Shown here piece after piece: positions 17,738-22,203 of a stretch of DNA of 64,000 bases. The stretch lies in the sequence record MT446415.1; one strand, written 5' to 3'. Below the pieces are notes generated by a model, which was given only the letters and a program-made list of their open reading frames with translations, made no database searches and was not told the DNA's origin. Each line of letters opens with the position of its first letter. The first letter of the stretch is position 1. This DNA is from Escherichia virus TH44. Both the position numbers and the translations under genes were made by a program.

Positions 17738-18292
17738 ATGAGCTTATATAATGACCTTATATCAAATGTAGAATGGTTTGGCGGTAGTGGTCTTGCTACT
17801 GAAACTAATACAGTTCTTTATAGAATCCGTGGTGACTTGGGTTATTCCAATGATTTCTTAAGAAGAACAACTAGCCGTGGACACACTACAAAATTGCCTT
17901 TTATTTTTGCTTTAGCTGAAGACCTTTCTTTCGCAGATGCCTTGGAAATTATTGATGTAAATCTGGGTATTCAACGAGTGGAATTCGGTGGGCTGAGTTA
18001 TTCCGTGTATGCGTTAAATGACCCAAGCGATTATAGGCAACTTATTAATGCGAACGATGATGACCATTTGGTGTGTTATTTGATGTTGGAAAATGGTGAC
18101 CACTTTGGAATGGTTGACCGCCGACCAGCTTATACTGATATTAAAAATTATGATAAAGATGAGCTTCTTGATTTGACGTCTGAGTACACATTAGAGAGTC
18201 GTAAACAAAAACGAAAGCTTAATCGTTTTATTGCTGAATGTCGTGAATATGCTAAAGAGGTTCAAAATGCGAACGTTATATCTGCCAAATAA
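17738..18292 (+). CDS. hypothetical protein
   Basis: ATG after gaggag (track ORF starts at TTG 17720). Confidence 0.55.
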   Translation: MSLYNDLISNVEWFGGSGLATETNTVLYRIRGDLGYSNDFLRRTTSRGHTTKLPFIFALAEDLSFADALEIIDVNLGIQRVEFGGLSYSVYALNDPSDYRQLINANDDDHLVCYLMLENGDHFGMVDRRPAYTDIKNYDKDELLDLTSEYTLESRKQKRKLNRFIAECREYAKEVQNANVISAK

Positions 18293-18626
18293 ACCAGAAA
18301 AATTTGTATACGCAAACAAGATTGATAAAGACTTGATGCCTCCATTTGGAGCTTTGTCCATGTGCATCGTTGGGGTTATAATGATGGTGCTTTGTGGGGA
18401 TATGGATATCATTAGTGTCGGAGTCGCCTGGGCACTAATAATCGCAGCTCCTTTTATTACAGTCCTGAGCATGATTTTGATAAATGTGTGGCATCAAAAT
18501 CATATGAATAAAGGATATCGTGGGCGAGTTAAAGAGTGGGAACAAAAATGTATTTCCCTACAAGAAGAGCACAAAATTAAATGTGCAGAAGAATTTATCA
18601 AGGAGGTTCGTAATGGAACGGCCTAG
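18267..18626 (+). CDS. membrane protein
   Basis: ATG after aaagagg; two predicted TM helices; overlaps upstream gene end. Confidence 0.5.
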   Translation: MRTLYLPNKPEKFVYANKIDKDLMPPFGALSMCIVGVIMMVLCGDMDIISVGVAWALIIAAPFITVLSMILINVWHQNHMNKGYRGRVKEWEQKCISLQEEHKIKCAEEFIKEVRNGTA

Positions 18627-18966
18627 TCTTGCATCACATGTTTATCAATTGGCTGAATATGATATTGGTGCCAGTTTATTATTAGGGATACCCACCGCCA
18701 TGCTTGGTGGTTTGGTTGGTCTGGTAATGACCACGGTTATGGCTGCAATCGAGGGAGTGATGCCCATTGAGATGGGTTTCTTTATGATAATCGCTCCGGC
18801 TGTTGTGTCTTATTTTATCCCTGTTGTGTATGATATCTGCCACACAAACGCCGTGAATGCTCCTAGTCGGAAGAGATATGCTTCAGCAATGGCTGAGTAT
18901 AATAAGTTCCTAGACAAAACAAAACGTAATGACCTTGAAACCTTTATTAAGGAATGTAAATCATGA
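18613..18966 (+). CDS. membrane protein
   Basis: ATG after aggagg; TM helices; C-terminus LETFIKECKS resembles end of the 22203 gene. Confidence 0.55.
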   Translation: MERPSLASHVYQLAEYDIGASLLLGIPTAMLGGLVGLVMTTVMAAIEGVMPIEMGFFMIIAPAVVSYFIPVVYDICHTNAVNAPSRKRYASAMAEYNKFLDKTKRNDLETFIKECKS

Positions 18967-19253
18967 ATAAAATTGAAATTGCTATCCCCAAGTATTATGA
19001 TGAGAAATCTGCAGAAAAAGCTATCTATTCTCTTCTAAATAAGACCTCTGAAATTGAAAAACACTGTGAAGAAATCGCAGATGAATATGGTATCGAATTC
19101 AGCACTGGCGATTACGGCACCGGCCGTACATATCACCCAGTCGGTTATGAATGTTCCGAATGGTTCGCTCACCATATTGAAAACAACGGCGGGCAAGTTG
19201 AAAACGGCATTGTTACTGTTGGTGCCTGGGTTTCCTCTTCTGAGGTGTGCTAA
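18963..19253 (+). CDS. W-SS-C tail family paralog 1
   Basis: 96 aa; ends ...GAWVSSSEVC. Confidence 0.6.
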   Translation: MNKIEIAIPKYYDEKSAEKAIYSLLNKTSEIEKHCEEIADEYGIEFSTGDYGTGRTYHPVGYECSEWFAHHIENNGGQVENGIVTVGAWVSSSEVC

Positions 19254-19254
19254 T

Positions 19255-19536
19255 ATGATGAATGATTACCGTAAAAATAAAGAACTGGCTAACGCAGTAA
19301 ATGATATCCATAAAGCTATTCGTCGTGCCGAGGAAATTGCAAACAAATATGAGACTCATTTTAATATATACCCTGCTCGCGGTATGGGCGGTGACTATTA
19401 TTCTCCTGGCGCCCTGAAAGCTGACCTTGCTCATTGGGAAGAACATGGTCATCCTGAATGGGCTATTGTTAATACTCATGACTATACAACTGACCTGGAA
19501 AAAGGCGGTTGGGTGTCCTCCTCTTCTGAATGTTAA
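19255..19536 (+). CDS. W-SS-C tail family paralog 2
   Basis: 93 aa from ATG after previous stop; ends ...GGWVSSSSEC. Confidence 0.6.
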   Translation: MMNDYRKNKELANAVNDIHKAIRRAEEIANKYETHFNIYPARGMGGDYYSPGALKADLAHWEEHGHPEWAIVNTHDYTTDLEKGGWVSSSSEC

Positions 19537-19544
19537 GGAATGTT

Positions 19545-19742
19545 ATGTCTCGTGAATTAGATTGTGCAATCCGTACTGCTGCGGCAGCTATTGAAAACGT
19601 TATCCAGATTTGTAAAGAAGAGCGTGAAGAAGCTGATATCTATATTGACGGTCAGCGTAATCTGGAACGTCATATCACGCTTTATAATGGTTGTATTACA
19701 ATTAGTGGTACCTCTTGGGTGTCCTCCTCTTACGAATGCTAA
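19545..19742 (+). CDS. W-SS-C tail family paralog 3
   Basis: 65 aa; ends ...TSWVSSSYEC; taaggaa SD. Confidence 0.6.
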   Translation: MSRELDCAIRTAAAAIENVIQICKEEREEADIYIDGQRNLERHITLYNGCITISGTSWVSSSYEC

Positions 19743-19751
19743 GGAAATAAA

Positions 19752-19970
19752 ATGACTACTAAAACTGTTAAAGAAATTGAAGACCAAATCCGTGCACTAA
19801 TCTGTGAAGGTGAACAACTGGCCGATAAAACCGGCGAACACTTCTGTAGCGGTGGCGAAGAATATATTCCAGCTTCTAGTCCGGAATATAACGATTACGA
19901 ATGGGTTCGTGATGAATATTGTATTCCAGAAGGTGAAGGTTTCTGGTTTAACTCCTCTATGTCTTGCTAA
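19752..19970 (+). CDS. W-SS-C tail family paralog 4
   Basis: 72 aa; ends ...GFWFNSSMSC. Confidence 0.55.
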   Translation: MTTKTVKEIEDQIRALICEGEQLADKTGEHFCSGGEEYIPASSPEYNDYEWVRDEYCIPEGEGFWFNSSMSC

Positions 19971-19979
19971 GGTGATAAA

Positions 19980-20213
19980 ATGACTACTGCTGTTGAACAT
20001 GCTGAATTAGAAAAAGCTGCCCTTGAACTGGCCGCGCTGTATAAGAAAGTAAAAGATATGGCTTTTGCTCAAGATTTCGGTGTCGAGCTTGATGATTATG
20101 ACGGCGAAGTTCGTCTTGAAGATTGGTTGAATAGCTCTTGTTACGGTGAAGAAGCTGGTCGTACCTTCGTTGCTCGTGCCGATGGTAAAATCTGGTATCC
20201 GAGTAGCTGCTAA
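19980..20213 (+). CDS. W-SS-C tail family paralog 5
   Basis: 77 aa; ends ...KIWYPSSC. Confidence 0.55.
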   Translation: MTTAVEHAELEKAALELAALYKKVKDMAFAQDFGVELDDYDGEVRLEDWLNSSCYGEEAGRTFVARADGKIWYPSSC

Positions 20214-20258
20214 AATTATCACAAGGATGTGATAGGAGGACTTATGTGCAGAAATTTA

Positions 20259-20288
20259 GTGTACAAGCCTAAAGAAACGTAGTATCAT
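20259..20288 (+). promoter_or_regulatory. early-promoter cassette (gtgtac-N18-tatcat)
   Basis: Preceded by perfect 7-bp palindrome tatcaca-agga-tgtgata (20217-20234). Confidence 0.5.
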
Positions 20289-20316
20289 TATCTCGTCAAC
20301 TAATGAGGAAAATATT

Positions 20317-20484
20317 ATGTATAATGTTCTTATTGTTTTTGTCACTCACCCGCAAGGTGGAGTAAGACAGAATACTTCTCAAGTGGTTCAATTTTCTTCA
20401 CTAGAGGCCGCCAATCTTGCTGCCTCACGAATTGAAGCGAAAAAATCGGCACTTGGAAAATATGAAGTAACTCGTCTTTACTAA
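20317..20484 (+). CDS. small hypothetical protein (55 aa)
   Basis: Below track cutoff; ATG after leader aatgaggaaaatattATG, which also precedes the 20498 and 21517 genes. Confidence 0.45.
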   Translation: MYNVLIVFVTHPQGGVRQNTSQVVQFSSLEAANLAASRIEAKKSALGKYEVTRLY

Positions 20485-20497
20485 TGAGGAAAATATT

Positions 20498-21457
20498 ATG
20501 ATGTTAGTTATTGGTTCTCGTGCATTACATAACGCTGGTCTGATTGAAAGTCAGAAAATTGAAAACTCTGATTGGGACTTTATCGCTGACCAGGGTTCTT
20601 GGAACCACTTTAAAGCACGTATGTTCGGGGCTCATGTTCCTGTGGATAACCCTAACGTCCAAGCTTTTAAATGTATGTACAATGGCAAAGAAACCTATTT
20701 TGAAGCTTATATTGTCCGTGCCCTGACCAATGTCAGAGAAATTACTGGTGAGCTTCAAGACGAAGATTTCACCTCAAGTTATCGTCTCTTGAAATACGCT
20801 GAAAATCATATTAAGAAAGACCGTCTTACAGGTTTCTATTGGGCGACGCCTGATATTTGCCTGGCGATTAAATTGTCTCATCGTTACCTGAAGAACAATC
20901 CATTCTTCCTGAAGACCATGAGTCATATTAATTACCTTCGCAATAAGGGTGTTGTTCTTAATGATGAACTGCAAAAAATCATGCTACAGCGTCAGGCAGA
21001 AACATTGTCATATAGTCACCCTAAACTAGACGTGGGCAAGAAAACTTTCTTTAATGATACAATCTATACCCTTGACCATGACTCCATCCACGAGGCCGTG
21101 GCGCTTGCTGATAAGCCTGCATATAAGTTCTATATGAAGGATGATTCAGAAGTCATGACCTCACGTGAAAAATTTGAAGCACTCCCTGATGTTATTAAAC
21201 TGGCAGGGGTTTATGAAGAAGCATGTGTGCTCGCTCTGGAGCGTTCGCAGGTTCCTAATGAGTTCAATATCTCTCCATCCGTGAGCTTCCATGTTGCGCT
21301 GGAAAAAGTCTGCACCTCCATTACTTCTGGATGGTTCCGTGAGTACGCCTGGGAACATTACCAGGAAGTGGTTAATATGTATAACACCCTGGGTCGCGAA
21401 GACTATGTTAAACGCTTCAAGGCTAACCAACATTTAATTCGCCCTTTCACAAAATAA
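20498..21457 (+). CDS. hypothetical protein (319 aa)
   Basis: N-terminus LVIGSRALH...ENSDWDF weakly resembles a nucleotidyltransferase G[S]...D.D motif. Confidence 0.6.
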   Translation: MMLVIGSRALHNAGLIESQKIENSDWDFIADQGSWNHFKARMFGAHVPVDNPNVQAFKCMYNGKETYFEAYIVRALTNVREITGELQDEDFTSSYRLLKYAENHIKKDRLTGFYWATPDICLAIKLSHRYLKNNPFFLKTMSHINYLRNKGVVLNDELQKIMLQRQAETLSYSHPKLDVGKKTFFNDTIYTLDHDSIHEAVALADKPAYKFYMKDDSEVMTSREKFEALPDVIKLAGVYEEACVLALERSQVPNEFNISPSVSFHVALEKVCTSITSGWFREYAWEHYQEVVNMYNTLGREDYVKRFKANQHLIRPFTK

Positions 21458-21516: not shown

Positions 21517-22203
21517 ATGAACAGTCCAAAAACTTTTAATTCTCAAGCTCGTGCAGTAGGCGGATTTGCAGGTCATATTTCTAATGATGATATTAAAAAC
21601 GAGCCTATGTTCTTTAACTGTGATTTGAATTTTGCTGCACAAAATGGCGGTCCTATTACTCGTAGCTTTATTACTAATCTCCCTGATGAGTGGAAAGCCG
21701 CTGAATGTGTATTTGATTCTCGGGTTCATATGTTGATGCCTGGTTGGTATCCTGCTATCCCAGGGTATCATCATGACGATGTACCACGCCCAGATATTCC
21801 GGTTGGTCAACACTTTATTACTGCAGGGCAACCTGATTATGATAATCCTCGTTACCATTCTGAACATATTCTTGGTCTTGTTAACGCTGATGTGTGTCCT
21901 ACTTATTTTGCAACCGGAACTGCACAATTTAGTCAGATTCCTGAAGGCGAACTTATCTATCGCCAGTGGCATAAAGAAGTTCTGGAAAAAATTGAGTCCA
22001 ATGAATTAACCAAGTGGGATGCTCCTGACCGTACGTTGCTCCAGTTTGATTGGCAGACATGGCATACAGGTTCTCGCGCAGTAAGTAATGGTTGGCGCTG
22101 GTTTGGTCGCGTATCTCGTAAAACTGACCGCGTTAATAAAATCACCAATGAAATTCGCGTTAATGCTCAAGTATATCTGGAATTCCCTATGGAGGGCTGG
22201 TAA
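21517..22203 (+). CDS. hypothetical protein (228 aa)
   Basis: Preceded by hairpin gtgggaccat...atggtcccac and the shared leader. Confidence 0.6.
   Translation: MNSPKTFNSQARAVGGFAGHISNDDIKNEPMFFNCDLNFAAQNGGPITRSFITNLPDEWKAAECVFDSRVHMLMPGWYPAIPGYHHDDVPRPDIPVGQHFITAGQPDYDNPRYHSEHILGLVNADVCPTYFATGTAQFSQIPEGELIYRQWHKEVLEKIESNELTKWDAPDRTLLQFDWQTWHTGSRAVSNGWRWFGRVSRKTDRVNKITNEIRVNAQVYLEFPMEGW

Follow-up and report, generated by a model that had tools for sequence, protein, structure and literature searches.

In the 64,000-nucleotide (nt) stretch of Escherichia virus TH44 analyzed here (record MT446415.1; hereafter the window), five small genes lie in tandem at 18963-20213, and each of them encodes a protein that ends in the same kind of tail, W-SS-C, with cysteine as the very last residue. 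An earlier note on this DNA, made from the sequence alone, had described five tightly packed open reading frames (ORFs) of 65-96 amino acids (aa); we confirmed them at that place and on the + strand, with the tails as the note had read them. In addition, our data show that these genes belong to a phage family with a near-obligate link to a downstream gene for a protein of predicted nucleotidyltransferase fold. The five genes of the array, with their PHROG assignments, are as follows.

18963-19253, + strand: paralog 1, 96 aa; tail GAWVSSSEVC, W89-C96 at nt 19227-19250; phrog_899 (E = 1.3e-21)
19255-19536, + strand: paralog 2, 93 aa; tail GGWVSSSSEC, WVSSSSEC at nt 19510-19533; phrog_899 (E = 8.9e-20)
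19545-19742, + strand: paralog 3, 65 aa; tail TSWVSSSYEC, WVSSSYEC at nt 19716-19739; phrog_4882 (E = 1.8e-36)
19752-19970, + strand: paralog 4, 72 aa; tail GFWFNSSMSC, WFNSSMSC at nt 19944-19967; phrog_899 (E = 3.4e-11)
19980-20213, + strand: paralog 5, 77 aa; tail KIWYPSSC, short class WYPSSC at nt 20193-20210; phrog_899 (E = 6.5e-9)

Among the five paralogs the invariant columns are the W, the S-S pair and the terminal C, plus the initiator Met and one Gly. Of the window's 352 six-frame ORFs with a length of 60 aa or more, only 8 have cysteine as the last residue, and since five of these 8 are the array genes, a chance origin of the shared tail is excluded. The six-frame ORFs of the 64 kb window include no further W..S..C-terminated ORF of gene length. 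Paralog 2 carries the family motif ARGMGGDYYSP, paralog 3 is a shortened member without the YGMGG loop, and paralog 5 has a second, internal W-L-N-S-S-C (nt 20124-20141), set within W-L-N-S-S-C-Y-G-E-E. Orthologs of gene 5 in several genera keep both the internal and the terminal W-x-x-S-S-C; this doubling may have arisen when two members fused, or it may mark several functional sites.

The earlier note had seen the tail conserved at the DNA level in three of the genes, which holds for genes 2 and 3, whose tails share the exact 17-nt word ttgggtgtcctcctctt, but not for gene 1, which has just 11 nt in common with gene 2. Its description of a taaggaa-type Shine-Dalgarno sequence after each stop is likewise partly right. 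Junctions 2>3, 3>4 and 4>5 read TAAGGxx...ATG, that is, a stop and then a TAAGG-type Shine-Dalgarno sequence, with gaps of 8-9 nt between the genes, whereas junction 1>2 is TAATATG, with the ATG of paralog 2 (19255) two bases past the stop of paralog 1, and gene 5 is followed by a 103-nt spacer (20214-20316). ATG 19255 is the start that the orthologs of paralog 2 share; the mechanical ORF list begins this frame at TTG 19054. At the other end of the array, the start of paralog 1 overlaps the stop of e.3 (ATGA). The five co-oriented genes are translationally coupled.

A megablast search with 18500-20700 placed the region in the T4-like Straboviridae, genus Gaprivervirus, with full-length matches to VR20, VR26, VR7 and SP18 (92-94%) and to TH41 (97%); T4 was not among the records listed by the megablast and tblastn searches. 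In the annotated VR7 and SP18 records, the array lies between e.4/e.3 and e.2, within a long leftward block of early genes that also holds tRNA genes, internal-protein genes, nudE and e, and all five ORFs are labeled "hypothetical protein".

Comparison with the VR7 and SP18 orthologs gave ratios of nonsynonymous to synonymous substitution (dN/dS) of 0.03-0.22 for genes 1, 2, 3 and 5 (0.135 for paralog 1) and of 0.49-0.52 for paralog 4, the fastest-evolving member. With values of 0.03-0.52 throughout, all five ORFs are therefore real coding genes under purifying selection. The array had been described as rapidly diverging; at a dN/dS of about 0.5 this suits gene 4, whereas the others are under purifying selection and are old paralogs, each with stable orthologs in other genera. 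Indeed, in RB69 e.3 is followed by the orthologs of genes 1, 2 and 3, arranged as in TH44 (that of paralog 2 is RB69ORF137c, ending GGWVASSHTC, and that of paralog 3 is RB69ORF136c), and Karamvirus- and Slopekvirus-type loci carry five members of recognizable types. In the RB69 reference (L003, AY303349, 3001-3307), a frameshift divides the gene 1 ortholog between RB69ORF139c (71 aa) and ORF138c (tail ...GAWVSSPALC), which is either a sequencing error or a pseudogene; other Mosigvirus-type loci (L011 and L015) have an intact 101-aa ortholog.

The family had not been recognized in the earlier note, and database searches bear this out: the small proteins matched nothing in Pfam, NCBIfam or PADLOC and fall in no named family. 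Paralogs 1, 2, 4 and 5 are members of PHROG 899 and paralog 3 of PHROG 4882, both labeled "unknown function". A tblastn search with gene 1 uncovered relatives in 395 phage records, including Mosigvirus (RB69), phages of Klebsiella, Enterobacter, Aeromonas, Edwardsiella and Erwinia, and coliphages of ~150 kb, and gene 4 reached the 366-368 kb jumbo phages Kaldavass and XbC2. A word-indexed protein search returned close relatives only, and the wider family became visible with an exhaustive HMMER search, in which a 34-sequence profile was run against 1.84 billion cluster representatives. Among its 85 matches, ~80 are proteins of 70-145 aa in which the match extends to the final residue. The shared architecture comprises a charged amphipathic N-terminal helix (consensus AE.IADE.G..F.F), a loop of the form AYGMGGTYYP or GDYGSGRTYYP (usually (A/D)YG.GGTYYP), an acidic variable stretch and the ending EG.W[VI]SSS..C. 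All five window proteins have the N-terminal amphipathic helix together with a terminal W-x-S-S-S-x-x-C or W-x-x-S-S-C. The N-terminal helix of paralog 3 aligns to the main family with an hhalign probability of 90.5%; the paralog 5 group gave no significant alignment to the main family by hhalign (probability 2.9%), and its membership rests on the PHROG 899 match and the tail.

From 120-odd loci we collected 258 distinct members, and 247 of them end in Cys. A Trp stands at position -7 in 183 of these proteins (W-x-S-S-S-x-x-C) and at -5 in 57 (W-x-x-S-S-C), while Ser occupies -3 in 196 and -4 in 193. An internal second W-x-S-S unit occurs in 37 of 247 members, compared with 1.4 expected from shuffling; in distant members as many as three W-E-S-S-S-E-G repeats are present (P0085). 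The earlier note had named confinement of the tail to this one genome as a refutation of its own proposal; the tail proved instead to be conserved in very different phages: tail-bearing relatives span T4-like phages, phages of 90-185 kb and jumbo phages of ~370 kb. These small proteins are acidic, with a median isoelectric point (pI) of 4.4, and make up a single old family restricted to phages. In 123 of the 258 members there is no Cys other than the terminal one, and metal binding or a disulfide within one molecule, both of which had been suggested for it, is therefore unlikely as a general explanation. Accordingly, a zinc ribbon or an intramolecular disulfide was rejected, as was a signal peptide or lipoprotein, the N-termini being charged helices.

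The structure prediction that the earlier note had called for gave a confident fold for paralog 1 (AlphaFold2 with a 34-sequence alignment; pLDDT 92.5). The model consists of a helix (14-42), a small sheet, a second helix (66-74) and three short strands, with the invariant Trp in the last strand and S-S-S-E-V-C as a less confident terminal turn, so modeled that the tail would be exposed at the C-terminus. Single-sequence searches of the PDB with the small proteins gave nothing meaningful, and the family profile matched just designed helical bundles, aligned to the N-terminal helix. As modeled, the small proteins have a novel alpha/beta fold without a known relative.

The most informative feature proved to lie next to the array, outside the 18963-20213 interval of the earlier note, in a gene that follows on the same strand. 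This partner gene and its two domains are as follows.

20498-21457, + strand: partner gene, 319 aa; DUF7277 plus DUF7275; PHROG 2141
20501-20800, + strand: DUF7277 (aa 2-101), Pol-beta-type nucleotidyltransferase domain; G6 S7 / D25 x D27 / E69
20855-21412, + strand: DUF7275 (aa 120-305), helical domain

We examined the linkage from both sides. On the side of the small proteins, an alignment of 80 sequences held no conserved stretch of 7-10 columns, and a 12-sequence subset with the motif YGMGGTY was used instead; with this motif we gathered 39 IMG/VR loci and clustered all ORFs within 5 kb. A homolog of ORF 20498-21457 lies downstream on the same strand in 40 of the 40 loci that reach far enough, a count that takes in the window and the VR7, SP18 and RB69 loci. 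In these 40 loci the enzyme gene often begins 4-60 nt beyond the last tail gene, and each array comprises one to six tail genes. For the reverse test, 80 independent loci were collected with the large protein, and ~74 of them (including one extra case recognized by eye) have one to five tail proteins upstream on the same strand; tail proteins are almost never found downstream.

The surroundings of the pair, on the other hand, vary completely. Upstream neighbors include e.3, a DnaB-like helicase, a primase-helicase, nicotinamide phosphoribosyltransferase (NAMPT) and a protein resembling polynucleotide kinase (PNK), and downstream neighbors form lineage-specific clusters only; neighbor clustering yielded no third conserved gene. 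Since the linkage outlasts the turnover of all other neighbors, from ~60 kb contigs to 370 kb jumbo genomes, it bears the signature of a functional pair, and we regard a functional partnership of the tail proteins and the enzyme as very probable. The module is restricted to large virulent phages. Among 185,579 bacterial and archaeal species, represented by one genome each, there were five matches only, all on contigs of metagenome-assembled genomes and all in the same, phage-type arrangement, and bacterial or defence-island homologs were therefore rejected.

The partner protein belongs to a family of 1,990 clusters in a word-limited search, and the Pfam entries DUF7277 and DUF7275 and the PHROG 2141 entry carry no function. 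Across 49 sequences, the most distant at 44% identity, residues G6, S7, D25, D27 and E69 do not vary; they make up the G-S / D-x-D / acidic pattern of Pol-beta-type nucleotidyltransferases. The protein has the Pol-beta nucleotidyltransferase fold with the metal-binding residues of motifs I and II. In structure it comes closest to the toxins MenT1, MenT3 and MenT4 and to O-nucleotidyltransferases of the ANT and Lnu types (values in the match table: MenT1, 8.0; TglT/MenT3, 7.2; ANT(2''), 6.9; MenT4, 6.4; LnuA, 6.2; Helicobacter pylori JHP933-type nucleotidyltransferase, 6.1). Given the invariance of G6, S7, D25, D27 and E69 and a dN/dS of 0.10-0.14 for the gene, the partner looks like an active, catalytically intact Pol-beta-fold nucleotidyltransferase of the MenT/AbiEii structural type. 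The helical domain has invariant residues of its own in the same 49 sequences, including K125, H128, R165, H174, D193, H194, D195, H198, C243 and C272. The median pI of the enzyme is ~6.5, which is not typical of an RNA-binding enzyme. At E values up to 10 the protein matched no Pfam family beyond DUF7277 and DUF7275, so that by sequence it is not a DUF1814/AbiEii protein, and it had no AbiE match in PADLOC and no sequence match in the PDB. The RlaP family of RNA-repair nucleotidyltransferases (PMC7824862) was considered as an identity and rejected, with no such Pfam match within the same E-value limit. Among the conserved neighbors there is no RNA ligase, and a PNK-like gene stands upstream in just 9 related loci.

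The remaining features around the module in TH44 are lineage-specific.

18520-18966, + strand: e.3, predicted membrane protein, translationally coupled to paralog 1; T4-like phages only
20317-20484, + strand: 55-aa ORF, phrog_20278, lying after the array and before the partner gene; most other loci lack it

Since upstream neighbors differ in other lineages, e.3 lies outside the conserved module, and the 55-aa ORF is lineage-specific filler that is likewise outside it. The genes e.4 (18231-18626) and e.3 overlap and encode related predicted membrane proteins (phrog_2604 and phrog_2330, with a weak cross-match). On the other side, the partner gene is followed in Gaprivervirus and some relatives by a 228-aa ORF (21517-22203; phrog_1843, ortholog of RB69ORF132c) that lacks a family annotation and whose conservation with the module does not extend to other lineages. 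The spacer 20214-20316 holds a perfect hairpin, ATCACA-AGGA-TGTGAT (~20219-20234), beyond which come AGGAGG and a mini-ORF of 12 codons (ATG at ~20244, MCRNLVYKPKET). Ahead of the 55-aa ORF stands a promoter-like site, TGTACA-17-TATCAT (20260-20288), and the partner gene may therefore have its own promoter in TH44. SP18 (L002, 3226-4078), TH41 and JS98-type records have an insert of ~750-870 bp between gene 5 and the 55-aa ORF, with three unrelated ORFs (75, about 110 and 66 aa). The insert accounts for the two-piece megablast matches and marks a hot spot of indels within the module. Antisense ORFs within the array were rejected as genes, as they are not conserved as proteins.

In nine jumbo-phage-type contigs (L004-L008, L013, L018, L024 and L027), the ~4 kb of DNA upstream of the module carry a gene for a PseT-like polynucleotide kinase/phosphatase. 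Its identity was read from motifs (P-loop GLPGCGKTT and DIDGT of the haloacid dehalogenase type) rather than from a family search, and it hints at an RNA-repair context. In locus L100 (4004-4930), the enzyme gene is frameshifted into a 55-aa N-terminal fragment and a 209-aa remainder, and no tail protein stands upstream. L088 and L090, which are related to L100, have no tail protein either, and this lineage may therefore be losing the module.

Several known systems resemble the TH44 module in part. MenT toxins add nucleotides to the 3' ends of tRNAs under the control of a partner encoded upstream: in the MenT1 system, the 68-aa MenA1 blocks two active sites of the toxin, and in the MenT3 system, MenA3 phosphorylates the toxin (PMC10435456). 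The MenAT and AbiE systems (MenT1-MenA1, MenT3/TglT-MenA3 and AbiEii-AbiEi) share with TH44 the small upstream partner gene or genes, the downstream bilobed Pol-beta-fold nucleotidyltransferase and the metal-binding acidic residues. Unlike them, the TH44 enzyme lies outside DUF1814/AbiEii by sequence and has a much larger helical domain with its own invariant H, D and C residues. The TH44 partner, for its part, has a new predicted fold with a W-SS-C tail, present in one to six paralogs rather than one, and the module sits in large virulent phages rather than bacterial chromosomes. The small proteins show no fold or sequence similarity to known MenA or AbiEi antitoxins.

HEPN-MNT type VII toxin-antitoxin systems also encode a minimal Pol-beta nucleotidyltransferase beside a partner protein. 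There, MntA AMPylates HepT, nucleotidylylating a side-chain hydroxyl near the C-terminal part of its partner, which provides a mechanistic precedent for the reading that we favor. The TH44 partners differ in having neither the HEPN fold nor the Rx4-6H motif (no HEPN match was found in Pfam or PADLOC); in addition, the genes stand in the opposite order, the nucleotidyltransferase being downstream, the candidate acceptor would be a tail Ser and not a Tyr, and there are several partners per enzyme.

Arrays for ribosomally synthesized and post-translationally modified peptides (RiPPs), such as the prochlorosins with ProcM, combine tandem small genes, a shared recognition element and one enzyme. 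The terminal S-x-x-C of the main tail class has the spacing of a lanthionine or aminovinyl-cysteine (AviCys) ring as in epidermin (S at -3, C at 0), a resemblance of sequence only. The TH44 proteins are, however, predicted to be folded domains of 65-100 aa, as the model of paralog 1 indicates, and not leader-core peptides, and their linked enzyme is nucleotidyltransferase-like. Pfam searches of the neighbors and neighbor clustering uncovered no lanthipeptide dehydratase, cyclase or decarboxylase (LanB, LanC, LanM, LanKC, LanL or LanD) and no radical-SAM gene nearby, and neighbor clustering linked no protease and no exporter or transporter to the module.

Lastly, tail-based carriers include LysW (C-terminal EDWGE), ThiS/MoaD (C-terminal GG) and acyl carrier proteins primed on Ser by CitX or MdcG, which themselves belong to the nucleotidyltransferase superfamily. 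These are also small acidic proteins whose function lies in a conserved tail or an enzyme-loaded Ser, but they have no sequence or fold similarity to the TH44 proteins, whose module has no linked biosynthetic enzymes and whose multiple divergent paralogs would be atypical of carriers. The families to which the TH44 proteins do belong, PHROG 899 and 4882 on one side and DUF7277/DUF7275 (PHROG 2141) on the other, are described in their entries without function, terminal motif or gene linkage.

Given the near-obligate linkage to a nucleotidyltransferase-like gene, the tail is best read as a recognition or modification signal for a dedicated enzyme, which comes nearest to the "processing signal" among the suggestions of the earlier note. 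From the gene linkage and the predicted folds we infer a physical interaction, and we tentatively favor, without assigning it even chances, a model in which the tail is the enzyme's acceptor and is covalently modified. More specifically, the tail would dock in the acceptor site of the DUF7277-DUF7275 enzyme, where a tail Ser hydroxyl would occupy the place of the tRNA 3'-OH in MenT enzymes, and the small proteins would thereby be nucleotidylylated on Ser. The terminal Cys with its free carboxylate would be a recognition element or a second reactive group. One enzyme could in this way serve one to six tail-bearing proteins, whose divergent bodies would be responsible for the downstream function; in view of the genomic setting, this is presumably host takeover or counter-defence.

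Four considerations lead us to this preference. Several divergent proteins with one tail per enzyme follow the logic of substrates rather than inhibitors, and the repeated W-x-S-S units look like repeated sites, which also favors a substrate. Pol-beta-fold enzymes transfer a nucleoside monophosphate to hydroxyls, in some cases on an operon partner or carrier protein (besides MntA, GlnE and GlnD modify Tyr, and CitX and MdcG modify the Ser of acyl carrier proteins), which argues for a Ser acceptor. Finally, the enzyme is not basic, and this favors an acceptor in the tail as well.

Other observations weigh against a modified tail. MenT enzymes, which are nearest in structure, have tRNA rather than proteins as their substrate and are restrained by a small upstream partner, so that by analogy the same gene order would fit an inhibitor equally well. 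Simple nucleotidylylation of Ser leaves the role of the invariant Cys unexplained; it may serve recognition with the free carboxylate, as a ligand for the enzyme's metal or an invariant Cys or His, or as a second reactive group. No role is assigned to DUF7275, a large and conserved domain with invariant H, D and C residues. In addition, ~6 of the 80 enzyme loci have no recognizable tail protein within 4 kb. No tail protein was found within 4 kb upstream in L068, L070, L088 and L090, and the other exceptions are L100, with its frameshifted enzyme gene, and L114, which has too little upstream sequence.

The main rival takes the small acidic proteins for inhibitors, akin to antitoxins, that would neutralize or time a MenT-like enzyme by placing the tail in its active site, where it would act as a pseudo-substrate or imitate the acceptor end of tRNA; the true target of the enzyme would then be tRNA 3' ends or another host molecule. 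This plug-like role is supported by the order of the genes, small gene upstream and nucleotidyltransferase downstream, often overlapping or a few nt apart as in MenA-MenT and AbiEi-AbiEii, and by the best structural match being MenT1, which is blocked by a 68-aa antitoxin (PMC10435456). The strong acidity of the small proteins, reminiscent of nucleic-acid mimics, points the same way, as does the location of the T4-like module within a tRNA-gene region and of some jumbo-phage modules beside a PNK-like RNA-repair gene. Yet there is no need for up to six divergent inhibitors, each under purifying selection, nor an obvious use for an addiction module in virulent phages, and neither the internal W-x-S-S repeats nor the near-neutral pI of the enzyme is explained, so that we consider inhibition somewhat unlikely. 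Alternatively, the paralogs may be adaptors, that is, specificity subunits that dock by the tail and the N-terminal helix while the variable body brings different targets (a protein, a tRNA species or a small molecule) to one catalytic subunit. Conserved ends around a variable middle, a varying number of paralogs per single enzyme and the persistence of orthologs of each paralog type across genera would all suit adaptors. On the other hand, a docking element needs no exact C-terminus with an invariant Cys, the targets are putative only, and we know of no adaptor among minimal nucleotidyltransferases, which counts against this proposal; we hold it to be improbable.

Nearer to the view of the earlier note, the five proteins could be independent effectors, stand-alone factors of host takeover or anti-defence, with the nucleotidyltransferase as a syntenic passenger and a terminal Cys that would bind metal, form a disulfide or be modified by a host enzyme. 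Their location in the hyperplastic early region of a T4-like phage, alongside indels, and their small size, acidity and multiple copies, which they share with many anti-defence proteins, speak for such effectors. However, a mere passenger would hardly stay linked through complete turnover of the neighbors across genomes of such different size, and a metal site or disulfide within a single molecule is not general when about half of the members have their sole Cys at the end; independent action therefore appears quite improbable. Finally, the ORFs and their tail could be by-products of a repeated DNA element or of coupling signals of the form TG[TC]TAAGG, as might be thought from the 17-nt word common to genes 2 and 3 and from the overlap of Cys codon and stop with the Shine-Dalgarno sequence of the next gene. 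This idea is effectively refuted already: dN/dS is far under 1 in all five genes, the tail codons differ (AGT AGC in gene 5 against TCC TCT in the others), the tail is also kept in single-copy members that precede the enzyme gene and not another paralog, and the fold prediction is confident.

Within the acceptor model, we can picture a phage system of protein-tail modification in which a MenT-like enzyme nucleotidylylates the tail Ser of folded carrier or effector proteins; this fuller version is a long shot. The protein-nucleotide conjugate could itself be the active species, for example as a decoy or inhibitor directed against host nucleotide-based immunity or the tRNA machinery. Alternatively, the O-nucleotidyl Ser could undergo elimination and then be trapped by the invariant terminal Cys, closing a thioether ring at the C-terminus, a lanthionine-like chemistry begun by a nucleotidyltransferase on a folded protein, for which the invariant His, Asp and Cys of DUF7275 might supply a second activity. 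As to biological role, the host-takeover or anti-defence function raised in the earlier note is possible, and the early, dispensable, indel-rich setting suggests host takeover or counter-defence; the MenT fold, together with the tRNA or PNK neighborhood in some lineages, suggests a link to tRNA biology.

Our literature searches returned no paper mentioning PHROG 899, DUF7275, DUF7277 or the W-SS-C tail motif. What is new here is the fold of the small partner, as predicted, together with the terminal motif, the multi-paralog arrangement and the restriction to phages, while the enzyme fold and nucleotidyltransferase modules with a small partner are of already known kinds; that the chemistry is new as well we think rather unlikely. 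Large virulent phages have hundreds of small early genes without a function, few of which come with a built-in chemical clue. There are three such clues here, namely an almost invariant, exactly C-terminal Ser-Ser...Cys tail, a predicted fold with no known relative and the near-obligate link to a catalytically intact, toxin-like nucleotidyltransferase. With these, what had been five "hypothetical proteins" becomes a defined two-component system. Should the tail prove to be modified, phages would have a new kind of protein modification or tailoring, and the MenT/AbiEii fold, hitherto known from bacterial toxins that poison tRNA, would gain a new use. Should the small proteins act as inhibitors instead, the enzyme would be a toxin carried by phages and subject to several regulators, with a bearing on host shut-off and on counter-defence against tRNA-targeting immunity. 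In either case, two Pfam DUFs and three PHROGs, to which thousands of phage proteins belong in all, would acquire a function.

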